Assembly: GCA_043816185.1 (NCBI GenBank)
Contig: JBDRIG010000070.1
Coordinates: 1-37,629 of the forward strand
Origin: Elusimicrobiota bacterium
GTDB lineage: Bacteria; Elusimicrobiota; UBA8919
Reading direction: 5' to 3'
DNA: 37,629 nt
The position numbers and the translations under genes are program-made. Numbering within the stretch: position 1 is the first letter of the stretch; every line of letters starts with the position of its first letter. Under the pieces are notes generated by a model that saw nothing but the letters and a program-made list of their open reading frames with translations, did not search any database and had not been told where the DNA came from. Below, in pieces: positions 6,809 to 36,053 of this stretch.

Positions 6809-8557
6809 ATGAAGAAAAAGATAATTGGATATTTGCTTGGCGTGTTAGCAATTTTCATAATTTTGGCTTTCAATTTTTTTGGCGCGTTCGAATCGTTAGA
6901 ATATAAATCTTATGATTTTCGTTTAAAATTAAGAGGTTTAAAAAGTTCTACCGAGCAAATAGTAATTGTCGCGATTGACGAAGAAAGTTTGGATAAATTA
7001 GGTCGTTGGCCATGGGACAGAAGTATTCATGCGAAGCTCATAGAAAGATTGGTTAAAGCAGATGTCAAAACAATAGGGATTGACGTTTTATTTATTGAAA
7101 AAAGTAATTCGCAAAGCGATAAATTATTATCCGATGCGATGGCAAAATCTAAAAAATGTGTTAATGAAATTTTTTTTGAAGTTGTAAATGGCGTACCAAT
7201 AAAAGCCAAATTGCCCATAAATGATATTGCGAAAAGTTCTTTGTCTCTCGGCTCACCACACATTTTTCCAGAAACCGATGGCGTTGTGAGAAAGATGATG
7301 CCTGTCATGGAATACAAAGACATGCAATGTCCACACATTTCGATAGCAGTTGCATCTGCATATCTCAATAAGCCATGGCAGCATTTAGTGAAAAATCTTT
7401 CATTAGACAGAAATAGTGAGATGTTGATAAACTACCACGGTGAATTTGAAACATTTAAATACATATCGTATTACAAAATTCTTACCGGCAACTTCAATCA
7501 GAATCTTCTTAAAAATAAAATTGTTTTAATTGGTTATGCTGCGGCTGGTCTTGGCGATAGACATGTTACTCCGTTTTCTCCAGCAATGCCAGGCGTTGAG
7601 ACGATTGCAAACAGTACCAATGCTTTTATTGATTCAGATTTTATTTCATATTCAAACCATTGGGTAGGATTTTTATCGGTAGTTATTGTTGGTATTGTTT
7701 TAGGGTTTTTATTACCAAGACTCCTGCCATTGAAATCAGCATTTTTAACAATTTTTATTTTCGTTTTTTGGTCTTTTATATGCAATTATTATTTTGTCAA
7801 CAAAAAAATCTGGCTTGAATATATACCGACGGCATGCCTGATTGTTTTCTCATATATTTCAATAACATTATGGCGGTTTATTACTGAGGAAAAAGAAAAA
7901 AGATGGTTGAAAAAGACGTTTGGGCATTATCTTTCTCCATTGGTAATTAATGAACTTATAAAAAATCCCAATGTAATTACTTTGGGGGGAAAGAGATCGG
8001 AATTGACTGTTTTATTCTCAGATATACGAGGGTTTACGACGATATCAGAAATATTTACACCAGAAGCAGTTGTGTCACTCCTAAATGAATATCTTACGGA
8101 AATGACAAAGATAGTTTTTAAATATGGAGGGACACTTGATAAATTTATTGGCGATGCAGTGATGGCTTTTTGGAATGCACCTCTTCCACAAAAAAATCAC
8201 GCAGAAATGGCCGTTTTCTGTGCTATTGATATGATAAAAGAATTGACAAAACTTCAGCAAAAATGGCGCGTTGAAAAAAAACCTATAATTAATATTGGAA
8301 TCGGTATAAATAGTGGTGATATGATTGTTGGAAATGTGGGTTCACTTGAAAGAATGAACTATACGGTTGTTGGCGATAATGTCAATTTAGCGTCTCGATT
8401 AGAATCGCTCAATAAAGAATTTAAAACACACATAATTATTTCGCAGTCAACATATTTGCATGTAAAAGATAAAGTTGTTGCTAAACCACTTGGCGCAACA
8501 GAGATTAAGGGCAAAGAAAATCCTGTAGAGATTTATGAGGTGTTAGCACGGAACTAA
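6809..8557 (+). CDS. CHASE2-domain class III adenylate cyclase
   Basis: IVIVAIDEESL..LGRWPW.R (CHASE2), TM helices, FSDIRGFT, DKFIGDAVM, YTVVGDNVNLASRLE. Confidence 0.93.
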   Translation: MKKKIIGYLLGVLAIFIILAFNFFGAFESLEYKSYDFRLKLRGLKSSTEQIVIVAIDEESLDKLGRWPWDRSIHAKLIERLVKADVKTIGIDVLFIEKSNSQSDKLLSDAMAKSKKCVNEIFFEVVNGVPIKAKLPINDIAKSSLSLGSPHIFPETDGVVRKMMPVMEYKDMQCPHISIAVASAYLNKPWQHLVKNLSLDRNSEMLINYHGEFETFKYISYYKILTGNFNQNLLKNKIVLIGYAAAGLGDRHVTPFSPAMPGVETIANSTNAFIDSDFISYSNHWVGFLSVVIVGIVLGFLLPRLLPLKSAFLTIFIFVFWSFICNYYFVNKKIWLEYIPTACLIVFSYISITLWRFITEEKEKRWLKKTFGHYLSPLVINELIKNPNVITLGGKRSELTVLFSDIRGFTTISEIFTPEAVVSLLNEYLTEMTKIVFKYGGTLDKFIGDAVMAFWNAPLPQKNHAEMAVFCAIDMIKELTKLQQKWRVEKKPIINIGIGINSGDMIVGNVGSLERMNYTVVGDNVNLASRLESLNKEFKTHIIISQSTYLHVKDKVVAKPLGATEIKGKENPVEIYEVLARN

Positions 8558-11438: not shown

Positions 11439-13280
11439 ATGAATATTAGAAATTTTTCAATCATAGCACATATTGATCACGGAAAATCAACTTTGGCAGA
11501 TCGTCTTTTAGAATTTACATCTGCAATTTCTACTTCACACCATGGACAAGTTTTAGATGCAATGGATTTGGAAAGAGAACGTGGAATTACAATTAAAGCA
11601 AAAGCAGTTCGACTGAAACATGTAGCTTCCGACGGTAAAATATATCAGTTGAATCTTATAGATACTCCAGGCCATGTCGATTTTACTTACGAGGTTTCCC
11701 GTGCACTTGCTGCTTGCGAAGGTTGTCTTCTTTTAGTTGATGCTTCTCAAGGTGTTGAGGCACAAACGCTTTCCAATTTTGAACTCGCCCGTCAACATAA
11801 CTTGAAGATTATCCCTGTTATTAATAAAATTGATTTAAAACAGGCAGATGTTGCGAAAACCATCCAACAAATAGAAAAAGTATTGAAAATTAAAGAGAGC
11901 CCTATTCTTATTTCCGCTAAACAGAATATTGGTACAAAAGAAATAGTTGATGCTATAATTGAAAAAATTCCTTTACCCGATGGAGATACGAAAAAACCAC
12001 TCAAAGCGTTGGTATTTGATTCACATTACGATTCTTTTCGTGGGGTTATAATTTATATTCGTATTTTTGATGGTGAAATTTCAACCGGAGATAAGATACT
12101 TTTTTTATCAAGCTTAGAAAAATTTAATGTTGAAGAAGTTGGATTTTTTCAAATTCAAAATCCATCTGCACCCGCAGGGCGTAAGATGACGAAAAATCTT
12201 TCTGCTGGTGAGGTCGGTTATGTAATTCTTGGTATCAGAGATATCCACAAAATAAAAGTTGGCGATACTATTACGGAACTTGAAAATCCAACATCAACAC
12301 CACATCCAGGTTACCGTGAATTAAAACCATTTGTGTTCTGTGGACTATACCCCATTCAACCGGGTGATTATGCTAATCTATCTAAGGCGATGGGAAAACT
12401 TCATCTTGAAGATTCATCTTTTTTTTATCAGCCAGAAACATCTGTTGCCCTCGGTTTCGGATATCGTTGTGGATTTTTGGGACTTCTCCATATGGATATT
12501 GTTAAAGAGCGTCTCCAAAGAGAGTTTAACCTTGATCTTATTATAACAGCACCAAACGTCAGATATAGAATAAAATGCATTGATGGAAGTAAGCCAGTAA
12601 ATGGTGCAAAAGGCGAGCATTCTATAATCGAAATAGAAAACCCATCAAAGTTTCCAGAAAGACAATTTATAGAAAAAATTTATGAGCCATATATTCTTGC
12701 GACAATTATTTTACCGTCTCAATTTGTTGGAAACGTGATGGCTCTTTGTGAAGGGAAAAGAGGCGATTTTCTTGATATGACATACATCACCGAGGATAAA
12801 GTAAAACTTACCTACGAAATGCCGTTGGCAGATGTGATTGTAGATTTTTATGATAATCTGAAATCAATTTCATCCGGCTATGCCTCATTTGATTACGAAT
12901 TTTTTGACTATAAAGAATCGGAGTTGGTGAAAATGGACATTCTTGTTAACAGCGAGCCTGTCGATGCACTCTCCTTTGTTATTCATAAAAATAATGCCGA
13001 ATTTTATGGAAGAAAAATAACCGATAAATTGAGAGGACTTATTCCTAGACAACAGTTTGAAGTTCCTATACAAGCATCAGTTTCAGGAAAGATTATTGCT
13101 CGGGAAAACGTTCGCGCATTACGAAAAGACGTAATAGCCAAATGTTATGGTGGTGACATTTCAAGAAAAAGAAAACTTCTCGAAAAGCAAAAAGAAGGAA
13201 AGAGAAAAATGAAGCAGTTTGGCAATGTTTCAATTCCACAAGAGGCATTTTTGGCCGTGCTGAAACTTGACGATAAATAA
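11439..13280 (+). CDS. lepA: Elongation factor 4
   Basis: IRNFSIIAHIDHGKSTLADR, DTPGHVDF, NKID, GFLGLLH, KCYGGDISRK.KLLEKQKEGK. Confidence 0.98.
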   Translation: MNIRNFSIIAHIDHGKSTLADRLLEFTSAISTSHHGQVLDAMDLERERGITIKAKAVRLKHVASDGKIYQLNLIDTPGHVDFTYEVSRALAACEGCLLLVDASQGVEAQTLSNFELARQHNLKIIPVINKIDLKQADVAKTIQQIEKVLKIKESPILISAKQNIGTKEIVDAIIEKIPLPDGDTKKPLKALVFDSHYDSFRGVIIYIRIFDGEISTGDKILFLSSLEKFNVEEVGFFQIQNPSAPAGRKMTKNLSAGEVGYVILGIRDIHKIKVGDTITELENPTSTPHPGYRELKPFVFCGLYPIQPGDYANLSKAMGKLHLEDSSFFYQPETSVALGFGYRCGFLGLLHMDIVKERLQREFNLDLIITAPNVRYRIKCIDGSKPVNGAKGEHSIIEIENPSKFPERQFIEKIYEPYILATIILPSQFVGNVMALCEGKRGDFLDMTYITEDKVKLTYEMPLADVIVDFYDNLKSISSGYASFDYEFFDYKESELVKMDILVNSEPVDALSFVIHKNNAEFYGRKITDKLRGLIPRQQFEVPIQASVSGKIIARENVRALRKDVIAKCYGGDISRKRKLLEKQKEGKRKMKQFGNVSIPQEAFLAVLKLDDK

Positions 13281-13356
13281 GCACCACCGAAAAAACAAAA
13301 GTTCCTTGAAACAACGACGAAACTGCAAGGAAAATATACAAAAAACTCAAGAAATC

Positions 13357-13383
13357 TGTTACCGAAATTGTGAAGTATTACAC
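13357..13383. repeat. 27-bp repeat, possible orphan IS end (copy 2)
   Basis: TGTTACCGAAATTGTGAAGTATTACAC. Confidence 0.7.
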
Positions 13384-13406
13384 GAAGGATCTCGCAATGA
13401 GACTGT

Positions 13407-13523
13407 CAGACTGTGTCACAATCCATCTTTTACCATCTAGTGTTGGATTACAGTACCATATTTTACCATCAGTTGCTATCTTCTACAAAAATGCAACTTT
13501 TTAGCCCATTGTGACACAGTCTG
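13407..13523. mobile_element. 117-bp inner MITE with perfect 16-bp TIRs
   Basis: CAGACTGTGTCACAAT (13407-13422) / ATTGTGACACAGTCTG (13508-13523), flanking TGT/TGT duplication. Confidence 0.85.
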
Positions 13524-13546
13524 TGTATCACAATAGTAAAATGTGT

Positions 13547-13633
13547 GTCATTACGAGCGAAGCGAAGCAATCTTTAAAACATTTCTCGTCGGAAAGAGAT
13601 TGCCGCGGCTTCCTTCGAAAGCCTCGCAATAAC
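13547..13633. repeat. GTCATTGCGAG...CTCGCAATGAC-type palindromic repeat (copy 1)
   Basis: 87 bp, near-identical to 24604-24690; internal GCAATCT/AGATTGC stem. Confidence 0.88.
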
Positions 13634-13755
13634 CAAAAGTAGAATTGTGGCACAGTCTGAATGACACCTTATAACACTACACCATGCTGTTCCTACCGGA
13701 TATGTAAAAAATTTGATTTTTTTTGCGACGAAATCGCTTATCTTTTGGAGGTTAA

Positions 13756-14571
13756 GTGACAAAAGAATTTTCTGTAATTTGGTTTCAAGGCGCTGCTTGT
13801 TCTGGATGCGCTGTTTCGGTACTTAATTCATTGAGACCGACGATAAAAAATGTTTTGCTGGACGAAATTGTCCATGGAAAACATATAAATTTATTATTTA
13901 TGCCTGTTGTGATGGCGGCATCCGGAAAACCAGCAATAGATGTGATTATTGACGCTGAAAAAAATAAAAGTGGCGAATACATACTAATAGTCGAAGGTTC
14001 AATTCCGGAAAACGATTTTGGAGATGTCGCAGAGAAATCAATAGAAGATAATGTCGAAGAACTATCAAAAAATGCCTCTCTAATTTTATCACTCGGAACC
14101 TGTTCGGCATTCGGTGGCATTCCAAAGGGAAAGCCAAATCCAACTAAATCAAAAAGCGTCGAAGAATTTTTAAGATTAAAAAATATAAAAAAACCCATAA
14201 TAAATATTCCTGGATGCCCACCTCATCCAGATTGGTTTGTCGGAACAGTTGCCAACCTTTTATTTTTTGGAGTTCCTCAATTGGATGAACTTTCAAGACC
14301 AAAACTTTTTTATGAAAAACTTATTCATGAAAATTGCGAGAGAAGACCATATTTTGACAAGGGAAAATTTGCCAAAAAATTTTCTGATGAAGGCTGTATG
14401 TATGAACTTGGCTGTAAAGGTCCATATACGCATGCAGATTGCCCAATAAGGAGTTGGAATTCCGGTGTCAATTGGTGTATTCAAAATGGTTCTCCTTGTA
14501 TCGGATGTGTAGAACCGGAGTTTCCAGATTTAGAAGCGATGTATAAAAAAACCTGCTGGAGAAAAAAATGA
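13756..14571 (+). CDS. [NiFe]-hydrogenase small subunit, group 1-like, no Tat leader or membrane anchor
   Basis: GTG start after GGAGG; CSGC, GTC, PGCPPHP, IHENC, GCMYELGCKGP, ADCP, WCIQNGSPCIGC. Confidence 0.93.
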   Translation: MTKEFSVIWFQGAACSGCAVSVLNSLRPTIKNVLLDEIVHGKHINLLFMPVVMAASGKPAIDVIIDAEKNKSGEYILIVEGSIPENDFGDVAEKSIEDNVEELSKNASLILSLGTCSAFGGIPKGKPNPTKSKSVEEFLRLKNIKKPIINIPGCPPHPDWFVGTVANLLFFGVPQLDELSRPKLFYEKLIHENCERRPYFDKGKFAKKFSDEGCMYELGCKGPYTHADCPIRSWNSGVNWCIQNGSPCIGCVEPEFPDLEAMYKKTCWRKK

Positions 14572-16061
14572 CAAAAATTGTGATAGACCCAGTAACAAGA
14601 ATTGAAGGACACTTGAAGATTGAAGCAATCGTTGACGGTGGAATTGTAAAAGAGGCGAATTCATCAGGTACACTTTTCAGAGGGCTTGAAATAATATTAA
14701 AAAACAGAGATCCGCGAGATGCTTCACAAATCACTCAAAGAATTTGCGGTGTTTGTCCGATTTGTCATGCAACTGCTTCTGCATTTGCTCTTGATTCTGC
14801 GTTTGGGATTGCCGACAAAATTACAGATAATGGTCGCATAATAAGAAACTTGATTCTTGGTGCTAATTTTATTCAGTCGCATATTTTGCATTTTTATCAT
14901 CTTGCGGCACTTGATTTTGTTAAATCACCCGATATACCTCCGTTTATTCCAAGATATGAAGGTGATTATCGTTTTAGTGAAAAAGAAAATACAGAATTGA
15001 CACAGCATTACTTAAAGGCGTTTGAAATCAGACGAAAAGCACACGAAATGCTTGCGATATTCGGCGGAAAAATACCACACAATGTAGGTATTATTGCTGG
15101 TGGTGTTACAGAAAAACCGACAACAGATAAAATTATAAATTTTCTGTGGCGACTAAATGAATTGCGCGAATTTATTAACAATGTTTATATTCCCGACGTA
15201 ATTTTTGTTGCTAAAAAATATCCTGATTATTTTCAAATTGGTAATGGTTGTGGAAATTATCTTACTTACGGTGTTTTTGATTTGGAAGGAAACGAAAAAA
15301 ATTATCTTTTAAAAAAACGACTTTTAAGAAGCGGAATAGCCTCAACAGATCTGATATGCAAAGCTGTCGATTTATCTAAAATTACGGAGGATGTAAAATA
15401 TTCTTGGTATGACGATTCACAATCACACAGGCATCCTTTTGACGAAGAAACAATTCCAAAAAAAGATAAAAAAGATGGGCATTCGTGGCTCAAATCACCA
15501 AGATACGAAGGAAATGTTTACGAAGTTGGACCTCTTGCTAGGATTTTGGTAAATTATATTTCTGGTGATGAAACAATTAAAAAACTTGTCGATAGTGTTC
15601 TTTTAGAATTCAATGCGAAACCAGATGTTTTGTTTTCTGTACTTGGGCGGCATGCGGCAAGAGCAATCGAAACAAAATTTATTGCTGACAATATGGCAGA
15701 GTGGATTCTGCAACTAAAACCTGAAGAACCAGTTTTTGTTGAATATCAGATGCCTGATGAGGCGGAAGGTGTAGGGTTAACAGAGGCACCACGTGGCGCT
15801 CTCGGCCATTGGATAAAAATCAAGAATAAAAAAATTGAAAATTATCAGTGTGTTGTACCGACTACTTGGAATGCGTCTACAAAGGACGATAATGAACAAT
15901 TTGGGCCGATTGAGCAGGCGATTATTGGAACAAAAATCAAAGACGAAAATAATCCTTTTGAAATAGTTCGCATTATTCGTTCGTTCGATCCTTGTCTTGC
16001 CTGTGCGGTTCATTTGGTTGATTTAAGAGGAATTACAATTGGAAAATTTGAAACGACCTAA
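14568..16061 (+). CDS. [NiFe]-hydrogenase large subunit, group 1-like
   Basis: DPVTRIEGH, L1 QRICGVCPICH, EAPRGAL.HW, L2 SFDPCLACAVH plus 15-aa C-terminal extension; ATGA overlap. Confidence 0.96.
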   Translation: MTKIVIDPVTRIEGHLKIEAIVDGGIVKEANSSGTLFRGLEIILKNRDPRDASQITQRICGVCPICHATASAFALDSAFGIADKITDNGRIIRNLILGANFIQSHILHFYHLAALDFVKSPDIPPFIPRYEGDYRFSEKENTELTQHYLKAFEIRRKAHEMLAIFGGKIPHNVGIIAGGVTEKPTTDKIINFLWRLNELREFINNVYIPDVIFVAKKYPDYFQIGNGCGNYLTYGVFDLEGNEKNYLLKKRLLRSGIASTDLICKAVDLSKITEDVKYSWYDDSQSHRHPFDEETIPKKDKKDGHSWLKSPRYEGNVYEVGPLARILVNYISGDETIKKLVDSVLLEFNAKPDVLFSVLGRHAARAIETKFIADNMAEWILQLKPEEPVFVEYQMPDEAEGVGLTEAPRGALGHWIKIKNKKIENYQCVVPTTWNASTKDDNEQFGPIEQAIIGTKIKDENNPFEIVRIIRSFDPCLACAVHLVDLRGITIGKFETT

Positions 16062-16545
16062 AATTGCCGTCGTAGGTTTCGGAAATATTTTAATGGGTGA
16101 CGAAGGAATTGGCGTGCACGTCATCCATGAACTACAAAAAAATTATACCTCATACCCTACATCTTACACCATTGAACTTATCGACGGTGGAACATCCGCC
16201 CTTGATGTGATTTTATCTTTAAAAGATATAGACAAACTGATAATTATTGATGCTATAAAAAATGGAAGTAACCCCGGAGATATTTATAAATTTCATCTGT
16301 CTCAAGTGAATACAGTTTCACAATCTTGCCATGATGGGATACGTGGGATACAAAAAAGTTCACTGCATGATTTGAATTTAATCGACGCATTAAAAATTGT
16401 TGAAAAACTTGGGACATTGCCAAAAGAGGTTATCTTTATCGGTGTTGAACCGAAAAAAATTGAGCCAAACATTGAACTTTCAGAAGAACTTAAAATTAAA
16501 ATTCCGGAAATTACAAAAACTATTCTATATGAGGTAAAACAATGA
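16039..16545 (+). CDS. Hydrogenase maturation endopeptidase (HyaD/HybD family)
   Basis: GFGNILMGDEGIGVH, DGGT, IIIDA, SLHD, GVEP; overlaps the large-subunit stop; exact start uncertain. Confidence 0.93.
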   Translation: MENLKRPKIAVVGFGNILMGDEGIGVHVIHELQKNYTSYPTSYTIELIDGGTSALDVILSLKDIDKLIIIDAIKNGSNPGDIYKFHLSQVNTVSQSCHDGIRGIQKSSLHDLNLIDALKIVEKLGTLPKEVIFIGVEPKKIEPNIELSEELKIKIPEITKTILYEVKQ

Positions 16546-17243
16546 TTGTAACTCATGCAAAACCGTTTGAGGAAATTTTGAAAACAGTTGAAGGTGAAAG
16601 AAGTGTTTTTATAGTCGGATGTAGCGGCTGTGCAAAAGTTTGTGAGACAGGCGGCGAAAAAACATGCGCCGAGCTTAAAAAAAAATTTGAAGAAGCAAAA
16701 ATTAAAGTTAATGGTTGCACAACGATTGATTTTATGTGCAACAAACTTTTAGTGTTACTTAAATTGTCGCGGTATAAAGAAAAAATTGAAATAGCAGATT
16801 CTGTAATTTCTTTAAGTTGTGGGATAGGAGTTCAATCACTATCATCTGTGGTTGATAAATATGTTCATCCTGCAAATAATACTATTTATCTCGGAGGGTT
16901 TCAAGGAATCTGGCCATCACAAGAAAAATGTGCTCAATGTGGCGAGTGTGTTTTAGATTTAACCGGTGGAATTTGTCCAATAACAAATTGCTCAAAATCA
17001 CTTCTTAATGGTTCGTGCGGTGGTGCGAAAAATGGGAAATGTGAAATAGATAAAGAGTTTGACTGTGGCTGGGAGAAGATTTATAACCGTCTTAAAAAAC
17101 TCAACAAATTAGAAAATTTTCATAAGTTTTCAACAAAACTTCGTGATTATTCAAAAATGTTTCCACCTGCAGAATTAAGGAAGACAGTTTTTTATGATGT
17201 GGAAACTATTGAAGAAAAGGCAGAATTAAAAATCGAGGGTTGA
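16542..17243 (+). CDS. metV: Methylene-THF reductase Fe-S/Zn subunit (MTHFR_C domain)
   Basis: GCSGCAKVCETGG, CGIGVQ, CAQCGECVL..TGGICPITNCSKSLLNGSCGG..GKCE...DCGW; upstream of metF. Confidence 0.9.
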   Translation: MIVTHAKPFEEILKTVEGERSVFIVGCSGCAKVCETGGEKTCAELKKKFEEAKIKVNGCTTIDFMCNKLLVLLKLSRYKEKIEIADSVISLSCGIGVQSLSSVVDKYVHPANNTIYLGGFQGIWPSQEKCAQCGECVLDLTGGICPITNCSKSLLNGSCGGAKNGKCEIDKEFDCGWEKIYNRLKKLNKLENFHKFSTKLRDYSKMFPPAELRKTVFYDVETIEEKAELKIEG

Positions 17244-17274
17244 AAACTAAATCTCTATATTCTTGTATCGGAAA

Positions 17275-17375
17275 AACGCACGAATAGTTCGGAGTTCAGA
17301 GACTATGAACTCGTAACCATGTCTTTGTAGGCATGGTCTGTCAGACTGTGCGCCGTTCATTGTTTGTCGTGCGTT
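17275..17375. repeat. Multi-hairpin metV-metF spacer including a GTAG-type REP
   Basis: AACGCACGA/TCGTGCGTT outer stem, GAGTTCA/TGAACTC, GTAG-GCATGGTCT-GTC-AGACTGTGC (17327-17351). Confidence 0.55.
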
Positions 17376-17402
17376 GTTGTATGTTTTTTGTGGTAAAAAA
17401 TT

Positions 17403-18305
17403 ATGAAATTAACAGAACTGTTTTCTTCGAAAGAATCTGTTCAGACAAAAAAGTTTGTTGTTACCTCGGAAATCGGTCCGCCAAAGGGTTGTCAAATTGA
17501 CAAATGCCTAAATGAGGCACAACACCTTAAGAGCAAGGTTGATGCGATAAACGTTACCGATAATCAATCGTCTGTAATGAGATTTGGCTCGCTTGCAACT
17601 TGTCATTTTCTAAAAGACAGAGGAATTGAACCGGTATTCCAGGTTGTTTGTCGTGACAGAAATAGAATTGCACTTCAGTCGGATATTTTAAGTGCTGCCG
17701 CTTTTGGTATTGAAAACCTTTTACTTTTAACAGGAGACCACACAAAGTTGGGCGACCATCCTCAAGCAAAACCAGTGTTCGATTTGGACGCTGTTTCTCT
17801 TATTTATGCTGTGAAAAAACTTGAAGAAGGTGTCGACCTTGCTGGTAACAAACTTGAAGGTGAACCACCAAAATTCTCGATAGGTGCCGTTGTATCGCCG
17901 TGCTCAGATCCTATTGAACCACAATTAATAAAAATGGAGAAAAAAGTAAAAGCTGGTGCGGAATTTTTTCAGACACAGGCAGTTTATGAAGTAGAAAAAT
18001 TTATAAAGTTTATGGAAAAAGTTCGTCGTGGCGGATTCGAAGTACCTGTTATGGCAGGGATAGTTGTCTTAAAATCCGTCGGTATGGCAAAATATATGAA
18101 TGAAAATGTTGCAGGTGTTTATGTTCCCGACAATCTAATTGAAGAGCTCAAAAAAGATAAAGAAAAAACAAAATCAGGACAAACAGGGATTGAAATTGCT
18201 GCACGACTCATTAAAGAACTTAAACCTTATTGTCAAGGTGTTCACATAATGCCACTCGGCTGGGGCGACAAAGTCCCAAAAATTCTTGAACTTGCAGGAT
18301 TATAA
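17403..18305 (+). CDS. metF: Methylenetetrahydrofolate reductase catalytic subunit
   Basis: EIGPPKG, DAINVTDN, CRDRNRIALQSD, LTGDH, VFDLD, GAEFFQTQ, GVHIM. Confidence 0.94.
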   Translation: MKLTELFSSKESVQTKKFVVTSEIGPPKGCQIDKCLNEAQHLKSKVDAINVTDNQSSVMRFGSLATCHFLKDRGIEPVFQVVCRDRNRIALQSDILSAAAFGIENLLLLTGDHTKLGDHPQAKPVFDLDAVSLIYAVKKLEEGVDLAGNKLEGEPPKFSIGAVVSPCSDPIEPQLIKMEKKVKAGAEFFQTQAVYEVEKFIKFMEKVRRGGFEVPVMAGIVVLKSVGMAKYMNENVAGVYVPDNLIEELKKDKEKTKSGQTGIEIAARLIKELKPYCQGVHIMPLGWGDKVPKILELAGL

Positions 18306-18946
18306 TGTCCGAAAAACCTCAAAAATATCTTAATTCATCTGTAAAAGAATATTTAGACAATCTATCAGCAAAACTGCCGACACCTGGTGGTGGTAGCGCT
18401 GCTGCTTTGGTTTCTGCTACAGGAGTATCCTGTCTTTTGATGGTTGTTAATTTTACGGTCGATAAGAAAGGTTACGAACAATATAATGACGAGATAAAAG
18501 AAATTTTAGAACAGCTTACAACTTGCAAATTACAACTTACAACTTTAATTGACGGGGATGTATTAGCGTACACAGTTTTTACTGTTGCGTGTAAACTTTC
18601 CAAAAACACAGATGCCGAAATAAAAATAAGAAACGAAAAAATACAATCGGCATTAAAAAATTCGCTACTTGTACTATGTAAAATTTTTGAAATATCCGTT
18701 TCTGTCTTGCCTTTGGCGAAACAACTTTTAGATATCGGAAACAAAAATCTTTTAAGTGATGTTGCCTGTGGTGTTTCGTTTTTACGTGCAGGAATTGAAT
18801 CAGCAAAGTTCAATATAGATATAAATCTTAAATTTATAGATGATGTTAATTTTAAGAAAGAAGCAAAAATAAAATACAAAAAAATAATGAAAAACGCTTT
18901 TATAAAGATAGAAAAAATAATTAAAAAAGTGGAGGCGAAACTATGA
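18305..18946 (+). CDS. fchA: Cyclodeaminase/cyclohydrolase family protein (methenyl-THF cyclohydrolase FchA-like)
   Basis: PTPGGGSAAAL, GNKNLLSDV, NIDINL (FTCD_C); between metF and folD with overlapping stop/start. Confidence 0.85.
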   Translation: MSEKPQKYLNSSVKEYLDNLSAKLPTPGGGSAAALVSATGVSCLLMVVNFTVDKKGYEQYNDEIKEILEQLTTCKLQLTTLIDGDVLAYTVFTVACKLSKNTDAEIKIRNEKIQSALKNSLLVLCKIFEISVSVLPLAKQLLDIGNKNLLSDVACGVSFLRAGIESAKFNIDINLKFIDDVNFKKEAKIKYKKIMKNAFIKIEKIIKKVEAKL

Positions 18947-19863
18947 GTGCGAAAATTATTGATGGAAATGAAATTGCGAAAGAGATAAAACAAAATATAA
19001 AAGCAGAACTTGAAAAATTAAAAGAGAATCTTGTGCTTGTTGCTGTGCAGGTCGGAGAAAATCCAGCAAGTAAAATTTATATAAAAAATCAAAAATTGTT
19101 TTGCGAAGAGGTTGGAATTGGTTACACACTTATTCAATTAGACGCTTCTATTTCTGAAGATAATTTAATTTCCGAGATAAAAAAATTATGTCAGGACGAA
19201 AAAATTACTGGTATAATTTTACAGATGCCATTACCTGATCATATAAATTCAAGAAAAATCCAAACGTCAATCCTCCCAATTAAAGATGTGGAAGGTGTTA
19301 CACCCGCAAACCTTGGCAAGCTTTTATATGCTAATCTCGACGGGACGAGACCAATCATTGCTCCGTGTACTGCACTTTCTATTATGGAATGTATAAAATC
19401 AACAGGAGAAAATATAAAAGGTAAAGATGTTGTAATAGTTGGCCATAGCGAGATTGTTGGAAAACCCGTAACACTTATGCTCCTTTCTTCACTTTTGGAA
19501 TCCGCTACGCCGACGGTATGTCACATCGCAACAAAGGATTTGACAAGCCATACGAAACGTGCGGAGATACTCATTGTTGCCGTCGGTAAGGCAGGGCTTA
19601 TCAAGGGTAGTATGGTAAAAGATGGAGCAATCGTAATAGATGTCGGAATAAACAGAGTACAGATTAAAGATGAAAAAGGTAATCCTATAATTGATGAAAA
19701 AACCTGTAAACCGAAAATGAAAACAGTTGGTGATGTTGATTTTGACGAAGTAGTAAAAGTTGCAAGTTATATTACGCCAGTTCCAGGTGGTGTTGGTGCA
19801 ATTACAACCACTATGCTTTTGAAAAATCTTTTAAGTTTGTATAAGGTGCAGAGTGAAAAATAA
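18943..19863 (+). CDS. folD: Methylene-THF dehydrogenase (FolD family)
   Basis: AKIIDG, GIILQMPLP, KDVEG, PCT, G.S.IVGKP, IDVGINR, GDVDF, ITPVPGGVG. Confidence 0.95.
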   Translation: MSAKIIDGNEIAKEIKQNIKAELEKLKENLVLVAVQVGENPASKIYIKNQKLFCEEVGIGYTLIQLDASISEDNLISEIKKLCQDEKITGIILQMPLPDHINSRKIQTSILPIKDVEGVTPANLGKLLYANLDGTRPIIAPCTALSIMECIKSTGENIKGKDVVIVGHSEIVGKPVTLMLLSSLLESATPTVCHIATKDLTSHTKRAEILIVAVGKAGLIKGSMVKDGAIVIDVGINRVQIKDEKGNPIIDEKTCKPKMKTVGDVDFDEVVKVASYITPVPGGVGAITTTMLLKNLLSLYKVQSEK

Positions 19864-19910: not shown

Positions 19911-19995
19911 AAAACGAGATGAAAATAAAAATAATCGGTAAGGATTAAGAAAAAAATACAATTCTCGATCCTCGGTTGGTTTCATGGAGGTTTTT

Positions 19996-21057
19996 ATGGC
20001 GAAAGCGGAAAAATCAGACAGAGAAAAGGCGTTGGAATTAGCACTTTTACAGATAGAAAAAGAATATGGAAAAGGTACTGTAATGCGTTTAGGTGAAAGT
20101 CCACATCAGAAAGTTGAGGTAATCCCGACGGGAATTATCGGACTTGATGTAGCACTTGGCGTTGGTGGAATTCCAAAAGGAAGAATCATTGAAATTTATG
20201 GCCCAGAATCATCAGGTAAATCTACACTCTGTCTTCAGATAATTTCTAGTTCTCAAAAATTGGGTGGGACCTGTGGTTATATTGATGCCGAGCATGCAAT
20301 GGATCCTGTTTACGCAACAAAACTTGGCGTTAACATTGATAAACTTCTTATTTCTCAACCAGATTCTGGTGAGCAAGCACTCGAAATTACAGAGAAACTT
20401 GTCCGAAGCAATGCTGTTGATGTAATTGTTATTGACTCAGTTGCAGCGTTGACTCCTCGTGCGGAAATTGAAGGTGAAATGGGTGATTCGCATATGGGGC
20501 TTCAGGCGCGGCTTATGAGTCAGGCACTCAGAAAACTTACTGCTATCGTTTCAAAATCAAAAACAACGGTAATTTTTATTAATCAAATAAGACAGAAAAT
20601 AGGTGTTATGTTTGGCAATCCAGAGACCACAACAGGAGGACTTGCTTTAAAATTTTATGCCTCAGTTCGAATGGAAATAAGACGAGTAACAACAATAAAA
20701 AATGGAGATAACGCAATAGGTACAAGGGTTCGCGTTAAAGTTGTAAAAAATAAAGTTGCATCGCCTTTTAAACAGGCAGAATTTGACATGATTTTTGGCG
20801 AAGGAATTTCGCAAGAGGGAAGTATTTTAGATACAGGTGTTGAATATGGAGTGATAGAAAAAAGCGGCAGTTGGTTCGTTTTTAAAGGTGAAAAACTTGG
20901 TCAAGGAATGGATAACTCAAAGTTATTTTTAAGAGAAAACCCAAAAATTAATAATGAAATTAAAAAGGCAATATTTGAAAAAGCATTCTGCACACCAGCC
21001 GCTAACCGAGCAGATTCGTCTATCACAAAAGATGAATCTATAAATCGTAAATCGTAA
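19996..21057 (+). CDS. recA: Recombinase A
   Basis: [60 protein letters not shown]. Confidence 0.98.
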
Positions 21058-28023: not shown

Positions 28024-28074
28024 ATCTATCTCCTGTTATTGAATGATAATTTTAATAAAGGAGGAAGTAATAAA

Positions 28075-29561
28075 ATGATAAAATTTGGAACATCAGGTTG
28101 GCGAGGAATAATTGCTGATGATTTTACTTTTGACAATGTCAAACTTGTAACCCAAGCGATTTCGGATTATATAAAAACGGGGTGTAGTCAAGCAGGTTTG
28201 CAGCAAATGAAATCTGTAGCGAAGGCGAAGAAAGCCGAATGTAGTAAAGCTCATGTCGCGCGTCCTCTATCCCCTGCTGTTATCGTCGGTTACGATACTC
28301 GTTTTCATTCAGAAAATTTTGCAAAAATATCTTCAACGGTTCTTGCAGCAAATGGAATTAAGGTTTTTCTAACAAAGAGAGATTGTCCGACACCCGTTAT
28401 ATCTTATGAAATTTTAAGACAAAAAATAGATGGTGGACTAAATTTTACCGCAAGCCATAATCCTGCGGAATATAATGGTTTAAAATTTTCACCTTCTTGG
28501 GGAGGCCCAGCGCTTCCAGAGACGACAGATGCAATAGAAAAGAAATTACAGATTACAGATTACAGATTACAGAGATGGATTTTGAAGAGGGAAAAAGAAA
28601 AAATCTAATTAAAGAAATTGAGCCAGACAAAAATTATCTTAAAAAAATATCGGAACTTGTAGATTTAAAGGCGATAAAAAAATCAAATATAAAAATGGTG
28701 TTAGATGTTCTCTATGGTACTGGCAGAGGATATCTTGATAAAATTTTAATCGATGCTGATTGTAAAATAAAAGTACTCCACAATTTGCGGGATGTTTTAT
28801 TTGGTGGTAATCCTCCTGAACCAGCGAAAAAAAATCTCGGCGAACTTTTACAAATTTTGAAAAAAGAAAAATATCAGTTAGGACTTGCTACTGATGGAGA
28901 TGCGGATAGATTTGGTATTATTGATAGCGACGGAACTTTTATTACACCGAACGAAACTATTGCACTTTTGTTGGAGCATCTTATAAAAACAAGAGGATGG
29001 AAAGGAGTGGTTGCTCGTTCAGTTATGACAACACATCTTGTTGATGCCATTGCGAAAAAACATAATGTTGAAATTAGAGAGACCCCAGTAGGATTTAAAT
29101 ATATTGGCGAGGTAATGACAAAAGAAAAAATGATTATCGGCGGTGAAGAATCTGGCGGACTTACTATTATGGGGCATATTCCTGAAAAAGACGGGATACT
29201 TGCTTGTCTCTTGGTTGCAGAAATGGTTGCTATCAACAAAAAACCCATTAAAGAAATTTTAAAACAAATTTACAGAGAAGTCGGAACAATTTTATCGGAA
29301 CGACTTAATTTTCATTTACCCTCTGAAAAAATGAACAGCATTAAATCCAAACTTGAGCAAAATCCACCGTTGGAAATTGCATCAATTAAGGTTAAAAGTA
29401 TAAATAAAATAGATGGGTATAAATTTTTATTAGACGATGGTTCATGGGTAGGACTTCGTCTTTCGGGAACAGAGCCAGTTGTAAGGATATATATCGAAGC
29501 GAACAGTCAGAAAAAAATAAATAAATTGATTTTAGCATCACAAGATTTTCTTAATGCGTAG
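28075..29561 (+). pseudogene. Phosphoglucomutase/phosphomannomutase frameshifted at a heptamer repeat (fragments 28075-28608 and ~28575-29561)
   Basis: FGTSGWRG, GYDTR, TASHNP in one frame; DGDADR, GEESG, RLSGTEP in another; may be phase-variable or an assembly artefact. Confidence 0.9.
28546..28573 (+). repeat. Perfect heptamer tandem repeat (TTACAGA)4
   Basis: Four exact units at the frame switch. Confidence 0.95.
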
Positions 29562-33824: not shown

Positions 33825-33947
33825 CTAACGCTCTTGATTGCAACGATAAAGGTATCGATTATAACGACAAATTTTCATCAGTAAATCTTGGCATCGTTTC
33901 TTTATCGCCGTGATCGTTTTTTAGAAATCACTGTAACTAGATCTATT

Positions 33948-34703
33948 ATGAAAAAAATATCAGTGCTTGTTATTATATTCGTTATAAGTTCAACTGTATT
34001 CTTGGGATTTTTTTCACTTATTGTGAAAAATCTCTCTTACTATTTTTCTGAATTTTCTGATCGGATTGAAATAGTTGCATTTATTGACGATAAACTAAGT
34101 GATGTCGAGAAAAAAAAACTTGTTGAAAAAATTGAAAGTATGGATATGATTGAAAAAATAAAGTATACTTCAAAAACTGAAGCGATGAATGAATTTAGTC
34201 TTGATCTCGAATTTTCCAAACAGATAAGAATTCTTGGAGAAAATCCACTACCTGCAGTTATCGATATCTACTTAAAAAAGAAAGATCCGGAAACGGTGGA
34301 AAAAATTGCAAAGGAAGTAAAATTAGTCAGTGGTATTGAAGATATTTATTATGCTTCTGTTGAAGCGGAAAAATTGCTTGCCATAAATAAAACATTTAAT
34401 ATTTTAAGAAAGTGGTTCAGTTTAATTTTTGGTATATTTGTGATCATTTCAATTATTTCGCTATCAATTGTTGTGCATGGTAAAAAAATCCTTTTTGGTA
34501 TAGTAGATGCTATTGTTGGAGGTGGAATAGGTTTTTGTATCCTATATTTGATGCATAAATATATTTTTATACAAAATTTCAAAACACCCGTTTTTTTTAG
34601 TAAGTTAGAAATTGCAATAAGTTTTATTGTTTTGGTAAGTATATGTCTTATAGTAAGAGTTCCGAGAATGATAAGGATTCCAAAAAACGTTGTTGAAGAA
34701 TAA
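33948..34703 (+). CDS. ftsX: FtsX-like permease, divergent
   Basis: TM1, extracellular domain EIVAFID...Y.SK.EA...F...LGENPLP, further TMs; upstream of envC and ctpA. Confidence 0.8.
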   Translation: MKKISVLVIIFVISSTVFLGFFSLIVKNLSYYFSEFSDRIEIVAFIDDKLSDVEKKKLVEKIESMDMIEKIKYTSKTEAMNEFSLDLEFSKQIRILGENPLPAVIDIYLKKKDPETVEKIAKEVKLVSGIEDIYYASVEAEKLLAINKTFNILRKWFSLIFGIFVIISIISLSIVVHGKKILFGIVDAIVGGGIGFCILYLMHKYIFIQNFKTPVFFSKLEIAISFIVLVSICLIVRVPRMIRIPKNVVEE

Positions 34704-34771
34704 AAAAGCGAGTGACGATACGATTATGTGATGATATGTTGAAAAAGATGATAATGCAATTATGCGTTGAT

Positions 34772-36053
34772 ATGCTAATGTATAAAAACCGAATTACAAT
34801 ATTATCATATTATCGTATTGTCATCATTACCCTTCTACTTTGCACTTTACGTTTTATGCCTTGCGTCGTCATCTATGCTTTCAATTACGATAAACAGATA
34901 GAAGAATGCAAGCAGAAAATTAAAGAGAGTAAAATAAAACTTACAGATGTTCAATCAAAAATTTCTAATAAAAAAAATAACATAAAAACTATAAAGAAAA
35001 AAGAAACATCTCTTGGGGCATATCTTGAGAATACTATAAGAAAACTTGAAACTACAAAAACAGGACTACTTAAAACAAAAATATTAATAAAAAAACAGCA
35101 AGAATCGATAGATACGCTAAAAATAAAATTAGAAATTGCAAAATTGGAAACGATCAGATGGAAAAATATATTAAAAAAAGAGTTAAGATTTGCACATAAG
35201 TATAGCGTAACGAAAGCGATTGATGCTCAATATTTTCCAAGAATAATACTTTCTTCAAATTCATCTGTTGATATAGCTAAGCGATATAGGTTTCTTCAGA
35301 TTATAGCACGACAAAAATCGTTTGTTTATATTCAGACATTAAAAAATATTCAGAAATACGAAATATTAGAAACAGGACTTGAGACAAAGATGTGCAGATT
35401 AAAAGAGTTGGAAAAAGAGAAAAAAAATTCAGAACAGTTATATGTGAAGCAGAAAAAAGAAAAGGAACAATTATTATCAACAGTAGTAAAAAAACGAATC
35501 TTTTATGAAGGTGAACTTTTAAATTTAAAAGATTCTGAAACAATGCTCTCTAATTTGATAATACTTTTAAGAAAAAAAACAGCAGAAACTGCTAAACAAA
35601 AAAAAAAAAGAAGAAGAATTATCTTATTTAAGAATGTCAAAAAGAAAAGGTGTTATATCGTGGCCTATTGAAGATGACCCATCGAAGTTAAGAAACAGTT
35701 TAGATGCAATTTTCGGCAAACAAAAACATCCACAGTTTGACACTTGGGTTGTAAATAACGGTATCAGAATTAGATCGGCCATAGGGCAAAATGTAATTGC
35801 TGTTGACGGCGGGAAAGTGGTATTTGCCGATGACTTTAAGTCGTACGGAAAGACGGTTATTATCGATCATTCTGGTGGATTTTATACTGTCTACGGTAAT
35901 CTTGATGAAATAGCTGTCAAAGACCAACAGAATATTGAGAAAGGTGAAATTATTGGTATGGTTGGAGTTTCTATCTATTCACAAAATGCATCTTTGTATT
36001 TTGAGTTTCGTAAAGATGGTATTCCACAAAATCCACTTGTTTGGCTAAAATAA
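34772..36053 (+). pseudogene. envC: EnvC-like coiled-coil + M23 protein frameshifted at A12 (35598-35609)
   Basis: Coiled-coil ORF to 35671; M23 domain (WP, NNGI.I, YGKTVIIDH, VYGNL, LYFEFR, NP..WL) in the next frame; start uncertain. Confidence 0.85.

Follow-up and report, generated by a model that had tools for sequence, protein, structure and literature searches.

The DNA analysed here, a 37,629-nucleotide stretch from an Elusimicrobiota bacterium (hereafter the window), carries seven consecutive genes that appear to join a [NiFe] hydrogenase to the methylene-tetrahydrofolate (THF) reductase MetVF. The stretch makes up contig C70 of an assembly (G000) of 1.44 Mb, with 94% completeness and 0.5% contamination. 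All seven genes lie on the plus strand, and the block is flanked by lepA (11439–13280) and recA (19984–21057). The first gene, hydS (13756–14571), encodes a 271-residue hydrogenase small subunit (PF01058 and PF14720) and overlaps by 4 nt with hydL (14568–16061), which encodes the 497-residue large subunit (PF00374, E 2.7e-154). A 168-residue maturation endopeptidase of the HyaD/HybD type follows (16039–16545; PF01750; TIGR00072, 125 bits against a cut-off of 47), and its overlap with hydL amounts to 23 nt if a TTG start is taken. The next gene, metV (16542–17243), overlaps the protease gene by 4 nt and encodes the 233-residue iron-sulfur (Fe-S) subunit of MetVF (PF12225, E 1.2e-31). Behind a 159-bp spacer (17244–17402, plus strand) stand metF (17403–18305), encoding the 300-residue catalytic flavoprotein of the reductase (PF02219, E 2.5e-41), fchA (18305–18946), encoding a 213-residue methenyl-THF cyclohydrolase (PF04961, E 8e-53) that overlaps metF by 1 nt, and folD (18943–19863), encoding a 306-residue methylene-THF dehydrogenase/cyclohydrolase (PF02882 and PF00763) that overlaps fchA by 4 nt. 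With NCBIfam models, FchA scored 153.6 bits (NF045657, under its cut-off of 275) and FolD 215–270 bits, every one under its own cut-off. The open reading frame (ORF) coordinates and the Pfam and NCBIfam matches confirmed the gene order and overlaps given in an initial annotation of the window. A Pfam search of the window ORFs likewise bore out its statement that the block (13756–19863) holds no gene for cytochrome b, Hdr, MvhD, RnfC/RnfC2 or a diaphorase. The arrangement is far beyond chance, because it is kept in five of five same-family genomes that have the hydrogenase and recurs in other phyla.

As judged from its sequence, HydSL is a Group-1a-like [NiFe] hydrogenase, a predicted cytoplasmic offshoot of that group without a twin-arginine translocation (Tat) signal. 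HydL scored 695.3 bits with NF033181 (NCBIfam, cut-off 600) and 593.6 bits with the selenocysteine (Sec)-specific NF045518, under the cut-off of 780, and its closest solved relatives are the periplasmic [NiFeSe] hydrogenases of Desulfovibrio and Desulfomicrobium (E 3e-140). HydS scored 248 bits with TIGR00391 (cut-off 179.5), with [NiFeSe] small subunits as its closest solved relatives (E 3e-68). Two CxxC pairs of the large subunit bind the Ni-Fe site, an N-terminal one of the form RxCGxCxxxH and a C-terminal one of the form DPCxxCxxH. In HydL these motifs read RICGVCPICH and DPCLACAVH, and they are invariant within the clade of metV-linked HydL proteins described below. HydL has Cys at the Sec position of the [NiFeSe] enzymes and its ORF contains no in-frame TGA, which makes it a [NiFe] enzyme and not one of the [NiFeSe] subtype. 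Beyond the last His, HydL continues for a C-terminal extension of 15 residues. HydS has invariant ligand positions at C15, C18, C116 and C154, at H191, C194, C214 and C220, and at C229, C248 and C251, which we take to serve the proximal, medial and distal Fe-S clusters, respectively. Membership in Group 3c (Mvh) was rejected, as merely a weak N-terminal similarity was found (E ~1e-34 to 1e-36). The Group 1 hydrogenase named by the initial annotation therefore stands as Group-1a-like by NF033181, but not as an ordinary member of Group 1. Group 1a has also been reported for a MetVF-adjacent hydrogenase in metagenome-assembled genomes (MAGs) of Ca. Bipolaricaulia (PMC11287216).

The cytoplasmic location is suggested by both ends of HydS. 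The protein begins with MTKEFSVIWFQGAACSGC at a GTG start, immediately 3' of a GGAGG (13748–13752) and an in-frame TAA (13753–13755); the stop codon abuts the start and so leaves no room for a Tat signal. The hydrophobic C-terminal tail, or anchor, is absent from HydS in the alignment.

Comparison within the family showed that the position 5' of metV-metF is exchangeable. The hydL gene was found in five of ten other genomes of the family, all five of which keep the order hydS-hydL-protease-metV-metF-fchA-folD. Of the five family genomes without this hydL, four have metF, and in each of these four an RnfC-type gene fills the slot before metV-metF. In three of them the gene encodes a fusion of 663–705 residues that combines a MetV-like domain with RnfC_N, Nuo51 FMN and 4Fe-4S domains and is preceded by fhs, while the fourth RnfC-type gene is cut by a contig end. 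By its domains, the slot occupied by the MetV-RnfC fusion is of the Acetobacterium woodii type. The fusion architecture is widespread; of 1941 longer MetV-domain proteins, 120 were listed, and some copies among these bear names from Blautia, Lachnospiraceae and Alkalibaculum. A third kind of module occurs in one of the hydrogenase-type relatives (G010), whose second cluster (L101; G010:C5, 492–7995) encodes an NAD/FAD-binding protein, a 1579-residue HdrA/GltD-like multi-flavin protein, MvhD, MetV and a 316-residue MetF; genes for a response regulator and a histidine kinase come next. Three different input modules are thus found directly upstream of metV-metF within one family. In a second Elusimicrobiota family (G108), the order is fhs-hydS-hydL-protease-metV-metF, which puts the hydrogenase exactly at the place that rnfC2 holds elsewhere. 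None of the six hydrogenase-type genomes has an RnfC2 fusion, as no PF12225 frame longer than 253 residues was found in them.

The two subunits of the reductase respond differently to this exchange. MetF is 84–89% identical to that of the window in hydrogenase-type genomes and 76–89% identical in RnfC2-type genomes, whereas MetV identity is 75–83% within the hydrogenase type and 42–51% to the RnfC2-linked proteins. The contrast holds within one genus, where the window genome and an RnfC2-type genome (G001) share 89% identity in MetF and 51% in MetV. We built a MetV tree of 21 rows that included RnfC2-linked MetVs and RnfC2 N-terminal domains from the window's family. The 12 hydrogenase-linked sequences, drawn from four phyla, lay on one side of a branch with support 94/97, and these RnfC2-type sequences fell opposite them. 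This tracking of the partner is the pattern expected if MetV were an adaptor that contacts the input module. The view of the initial annotation that MetV occupies the redox-partner position in a soluble H2-to-methylene-THF module is supported by all comparisons made here: the recurrence of the synteny, the exchange of the slot with RnfC2 and HdrA-MvhD, the co-variation of MetV but not MetF, the loss of the Tat signal, anchor and cytochrome b along with the linkage, and the pathway genes elsewhere in the genome. MetV has 12 invariant Cys residues. The extra N-terminal Cys residues of the Elusimicrobiota MetVs were tried as a marker of the class and dropped, since outside that phylum a single one is kept, in Spirochaetota. 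No solved structure matched the MetV profile at E ≤0.01, and a complex prediction for HydS and MetV, each entered as a 9-row alignment, scored 0.01 against a mark of 0.32, a value that by the rule of the method speaks neither for nor against a contact. Elsewhere, an orphan MetV-like PF12225 protein (L100; G003:C17, 4143–4868) is encoded away from metF, its neighbours being two Nitro_FeMo-Co (DUF) proteins, a methyltransferase and an Fe-S ATPase of the NUBPL/ParA type.

Relatives of hydL (E ≤1e-60) occurred in nine of a sample of 401 genomes of the phylum, the window counted. A scan of species-representative genomes gave 58 loci, which comprised nine with HydL identity of at least 58% and 49 with identity of at most 51%. 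In all nine of the closer loci metV comes right after hydL or the protease gene, one contig ending inside metV; they belong to four Elusimicrobiota (already seen), one Spirochaetota, one Ca. Fraserbacteria and three Dehalococcoidales MAGs. None of the 49 more distant loci has metV or metF, and 10 of them have a cytochrome b match instead. As a prospective test, metagenome contigs were searched with a profile of the linked HydL clade. At least 582 relatives were detected, of which the best 80 were kept; these loci were picked by similarity to the clade, and many are kin. At least 1300 bp 3' of hydL were available in 57 of the 80, and 51 of these 57 have metV within 1.5 kb. Among the 23 shorter loci, metV was still seen in 13. 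The loci L102 and L103 have a variant order (HdrA-like, metV, hydS, hydL, cyclic nucleotide monophosphate (cNMP)-binding histidine kinase, metF, response regulator and a second MetV-like gene), in which metF lies further downstream behind the kinase and, in L102, metV lies 13 bp upstream of hydS; the pairing of hydrogenase and methylene-THF reductase is kept in both, with regulators inserted. Neither metV nor metF was seen in L153. In L162, L165 and L166, metV is lacking and a canonical Tat motif is present; hydL of L162 is followed by hypF and hypD. Membership in the clade thus predicts linkage to metV. The synteny search advised by the initial annotation accordingly places the arrangement beyond this genome, in the five family genomes, four phyla and most of the metagenome loci. 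In one of the Dehalococcoidales MAGs (L048, 1378–5908), genes for an EtfB-like protein, an EtfA-like protein with N-terminal 2x[4Fe-4S] and a 655-residue HdrD-like CCG-domain Fe-S protein stand directly 5' of hydS-hydL-metV-metF, and these may be a lineage-specific extra redox partner.

The absence of a Tat signal follows the same division. HydS could be extended by 0–3 residues at most in all nine testable linked loci, and an RR motif on a leader of 35–118 residues was present in 35 of 43 unlinked rows; of the other eight, three were uninformative and five were Bacillota-type enzymes with a leader but no RR motif. Among 48 metagenome loci, 43 have metV and no Tat motif, three have a Tat motif and no metV, one has both and one has neither. 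The two off-diagonal loci are L140, which has metV and a weak TRRAVM on a 24-residue extension, and L102, which has no Tat motif and a metV linked upstream. In a HydL tree of 55 rows, from which seven loci were left out because the one-frame match was too short, the 12 linked sequences formed one side of a branch (SH-aLRT 86) with a single label change, and 0 of 500 shuffles reached as low a number. Sister to the linked clade (support 99) is an enzyme from Elusimicrobiota that carries a Tat leader and ends in a hydrophobic C-terminal tail, with a cytochrome b encoded downstream. The simplest history would be that a membrane-bound, Tat-exported, cytochrome-b-linked uptake hydrogenase of Group 1 shed its signal peptide, anchor and cytochrome and was then recruited to MetV. 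The hydrogenase-MetV cassette would from there on have been inherited, with probable transfer between phyla as well.

The rest of the genome indicates which pathway the block may serve. The initial annotation had advised a check for fhs, acs and rnf genes, and all three kinds are present: the genome encodes Fhs, with AcsE and acetate kinase adjoining fhs; a cluster for AcsB, carbon monoxide dehydrogenase (CODH) and CdhD; and an Rnf operon. Of the two roles proposed earlier, that in the Wood-Ljungdahl pathway's methyl branch agrees with this gene set, but a role in methionine synthesis is disfavoured, because neither MetH (PF02574) nor MetE (PF01717) was found in the 94%-complete genome. The metV gene is the only PF12225 copy. 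A search of the same genome found no MvhD (PF02662) and no [FeFe] hydrogenase, and its sole PF01512 match is a 448-residue RnfC inside the rnf operon, with no RnfC2 fusion; no alternative partner for MetVF was thus found in the genome. A second [NiFe] hydrogenase, of the NAD(P) type with FAD/NAD and Fer4_22 subunits, is encoded on contig C17. Adjoining its operon and a gene for a radical SAM/BATS protein, an ORF of 418 residues (L037:2627–3883, minus strand) combines HupF/HypC and radical SAM domains in an unusual maturation-factor fusion. The Wood-Ljungdahl lineages of the phylum have been predicted to be Rnf-dependent acetogens (10.1101/765248), in a study whose sections consulted here do not mention a Group 1 hydrogenase. 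One metatranscriptome run contained 0.08 of the sampled words.

The non-coding parts of the locus contain a dispersed repeat. Its core CACAGTCTG occurs in 123 copies on 61 contigs, against about 5 expected, and a 16-mer of the repeat (CAGACTGTGTCACAAT) occurs in 25 copies in the genome. The gap between metV and metF, described earlier as filled with repeats, was confirmed at 159 bp and carries one copy of this motif, which it shares with the region upstream of hydS (repeat pair I7). That region, a non-coding leader of 475 bp (13281–13755), holds nested inverted repeats of the motif (I1 and I3) and a direct repeat (D8). The repeat looks like an element of the repetitive extragenic palindrome (REP) or miniature inverted-repeat transposable element (MITE) kind, occupying intergenic regions such as the operon leader and the gap between metV and metF. 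The predicted fold of the spacer is a branched structure with a 9-bp closing stem (−40.6 kcal/mol, z −2.3; 4 of 200 shuffles did equally well), behind which comes a U-rich run. A structured spacer of this length is particular to this genome; in relatives metV and metF are 15–80 bp apart or overlap. A consensus scan gave seven terminator-like sites (4.5 ± 2.7 in shuffles), none of them in the spacer, and promoter-like sites were not above shuffles (20 against 22.3 ± 5.5).

From these comparisons we propose, with a probability of roughly 0.68, that the block encodes a cytoplasmic H2-oxidising input module dedicated to the MetV-MetF reductase, so that H2 probably feeds the methylene-THF reduction step directly. 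HydS-HydL would be matured by the co-encoded protease, and H2 would be split at the [NiFe] site of HydL. The three Fe-S clusters of HydS would then carry the electrons to MetV, the proposed adaptor between HydS and MetF, whose own Fe-S clusters would hand them on to the flavin of MetF, which would reduce methylene-THF to methyl-THF for the Wood-Ljungdahl methyl branch, with AcsE and CODH/acetyl-CoA synthase (ACS) encoded elsewhere in the genome. In relatives this slot belongs to RnfC2, with NADH as input, or to HdrA-MvhD; the Tat-less hydrogenase would have taken it over. The physical complex, the electron path and the physiological role are inferred, as is the direction (H2 uptake), for which the grounds are the uptake type of the enzyme family and thermodynamics. 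With E0' values of −414 mV for H2 and −200 mV for methylene-THF (PMC9586279, PMC6895022), the forward reaction is calculated to release ~41 kJ/mol, and the reverse to need H2 near 1e-7 bar.

Several observations weigh against this proposal. A reaction of H2 with methylene-THF that conserves no energy would be wasteful for an energy-limited acetogen, which argues that the mechanism as stated is incomplete. The listed 120 of the 1941 longer proteins with a MetV domain include MetV-MetF and MetV-RnfC fusions only, and no fusion of MetV to a hydrogenase. In the MetV tree, MvhD-linked and orphan MetVs form long branches that lie, poorly resolved, on the hydrogenase side, and the extra N-terminal Cys residues of Elusimicrobiota MetV are not conserved in the Fraserbacteria and Dehalococcoidales copies. 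Kin among the loci are not independent, and the linkage counts overstate the number of independent events. The spacer structure and its U-rich tail could attenuate read-through into metF. Two expected genes were not found in the 94%-complete genome. One is the molybdopterin formate dehydrogenase (PF00384), so that either formate from outside may feed the start of the methyl branch or the gene may be missing from the assembly. The other is HypD; since it is present in all ten other family genomes, in one as two pieces broken by stops, its lack here is probably an assembly gap.

Among the alternatives, a bifurcating reaction is possible, although we regard it as rather doubtful. HydSL-MetVF would then be a minimal four-subunit flavin-based enzyme in which H2 reduces methylene-THF together with ferredoxin, like MvhAGD-HdrABC. 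Such an enzyme would use the ~41 kJ/mol that is otherwise dissipated. It would also suit a genome in which no [FeFe] (HydABC-type) hydrogenase or MvhD was found, yet Rnf and CODH/ACS need reduced ferredoxin. The EtfB/EtfA-like and HdrD-like genes 5' of hydS in the Dehalococcoidales locus, and the HdrA-like gene 5' of metV-hydS in L102, are consistent with it as well. However, no extra flavoprotein is common to the linked loci, whose shared core is only hydS-hydL-(protease)-metV-metF, and purified MetFV shows no bifurcation (PMC8578170). The second, NAD(P)-type [NiFe] hydrogenase on contig C17 also speaks against it; group 4 hydrogenases were not searched with a family of their own.

Co-regulation without a complex, in which the hydrogenase would reduce a soluble carrier such as ferredoxin and MetVF would draw on the pool, seems unlikely to us. 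The genes would then be neighbours because both are needed on H2. MetFV enzymes do take reduced ferredoxin in vitro (PMC8578170, PMC8515935), and the lack of a MetV-hydrogenase fusion among the listed proteins fits separate enzymes, but ferredoxin has been argued to be energetically impossible as the physiological donor (PMC8578170, PMC8515935). Co-regulation also leaves unexplained why divergence with the upstream module is seen in MetV but not in MetF, why the hydrogenase sits in the exact RnfC2/HdrA-MvhD slot with start/stop overlaps, and why the linkage is near-obligate in the HydL clade.

Operation in reverse, with methyl-THF oxidised and H2 released for syntrophic oxidation of acetate or methyl groups, is very unlikely. 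The Wood-Ljungdahl pathway runs backwards in syntrophic acetate oxidisers (PMC6895022), and [NiFe] hydrogenases are reversible in principle. However, electron transfer from methyl-THF (−200 mV) to H2 (−414 mV) is strongly endergonic and, without energy input, would demand the very low H2 pressure calculated above; the nearest enzyme family is of the uptake type, and the genome has acetate kinase and a forward-type gene set. Sensor hydrogenases are linked to a histidine kinase, do without a maturation protease and have a large subunit that lacks the C-terminal extension. An H2-sensing regulatory hydrogenase controlling metVF or methyl-branch expression is hardly credible here: the enzyme is cytoplasmic and Tat-less, as known H2 sensors are, and a histidine kinase or response regulators lie near a few related loci (L102, L103 and L046), but HydL is Group-1a-like by NCBIfam, has a C-terminal extension and its own overlapping protease gene, and a kinase or regulator is absent from the block itself and from most linked loci.

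A dedicated input module for MetVF has parallels in known systems. In the Type III RnfC2-MetV-MetF of A. woodii, an NADH-dependent input module likewise stands directly 5' of the MetV-MetF core; here, a [NiFe] hydrogenase and H2 replace the FMN/NADH module, the RnfC2 fusion is absent and MetV is of another class. The Type IV HdrCBA-MvhD-MetVF of Moorella thermoacetica and Sporomusa ovata also wires MetVF to a multi-cluster redox module, whereas the present locus has no Hdr or MvhD and encodes a true catalytic hydrogenase rather than the MvhD subunit alone. The Type II MetFV enzymes (Clostridium ljungdahlii, Thermoanaerobacter kivui and Eubacterium callanderi) have the same two-subunit Fe-S/flavin MetV-MetF, but lack the dedicated partner gene that is represented here by a conserved hydrogenase translationally coupled to metV. 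On the hydrogenase side, Hys of Desulfovibrio vulgaris and Desulfomicrobium baculatum (Group 1a) is alike in having a small subunit with three clusters, processing at the C-terminus and a protease of its own, but the present enzyme has no Tat signal, has Cys for Sec and would have MetV as partner instead of a periplasmic cytochrome. In MvhAGD-HdrABC of methanogens (Group 3c), as proposed here, an Fe-S adaptor hard-wires a cytoplasmic [NiFe] hydrogenase to a reductase of the cytoplasm, and this complex provides the mechanistic model for a possible bifurcating version; hydrogenase group, adaptor and acceptor are all different here.

In the literature, characterised MetFV enzymes have RnfC2, Hdr-MvhD or no partner (PMC8578170, PMC6895022, PMC8515935), and in the available parts of PMC7325909 and PMC9586279 MetVF is linked to Hdr/MvhD or RnfC only. 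The physiological donor of MetFV-type enzymes has been said to remain "enigmatic", and hypothetical coupling to respiratory complexes has been invoked (PMC8578170). Where PMC6895022 mentions a "hydrogenase" next to metFV, the MvhD/MvrD subunit of its abbreviations list appears to be meant. One sentence in a 2024 study (PMC11287216) places HysAB next to MetVF in Ca. Bipolaricaulia MAGs and suggests that it supplies electrons for methylene-THF reduction; this was a genomic inference in another phylum, and the accessible text contains no analysis of Tat loss, module exchange, MetV co-variation or distribution. A full-text literature search found no biochemical or structural work on the hydrogenase-MetVF pairing. 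The initial annotation, which was aware of no characterisation of the arrangement, was right to that extent, but the pairing itself had already been noted in print. Hydrogenase-MetVF would thus represent a further, H2-dependent type of MetVF reductase, noted in print and not characterised. Added here are the module swap within a family and within a genus, the contrast between a constant MetF and a variable MetV, and the sister enzyme with Tat leader, anchor and cytochrome b in the same phylum.

Other features of the window lie outside the block. A CHASE2-adenylate/guanylate cyclase sensor of 582 residues (6809–8557) is encoded between ribosomal protein genes and the gene for phosphotransferase system (PTS) enzyme I. 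A phosphoglucomutase/phosphomannomutase is split into two overlapping frames of 189 residues (28039–28608, domain I) and 354 residues (28497–29561, domains II–IV), the split being a frameshift, real or an assembly error. At 33888–36053, an FtsX-like ORF (FtsX_ECD) is followed by a 319-residue ORF without a Pfam match that overlaps a 139-residue Peptidase_M23 ORF; the latter two may be a split gene for an activator of the EnvC/M23 type.

The electron donor of MetVF is the least settled step of acetogen bioenergetics. If a hydrogenase is indeed hard-wired to MetV, this would add a further H2-dependent type of the enzyme and a concrete target of four proteins, and the exchange of modules before the same MetF offers a ready-made comparison for how MetV selects its partner. 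The locus would also illustrate the recruitment of a respiratory hydrogenase from the periplasm to the cytoplasm. With at least 582 relatives in the metagenome scan, the linked clade is widespread in uncultured anaerobes. Should the enzyme bifurcate, it would be the energy coupling that is missing from the methyl branch, and a source of reduced ferredoxin in acetogens without HydABC and Hdr-Mvh.

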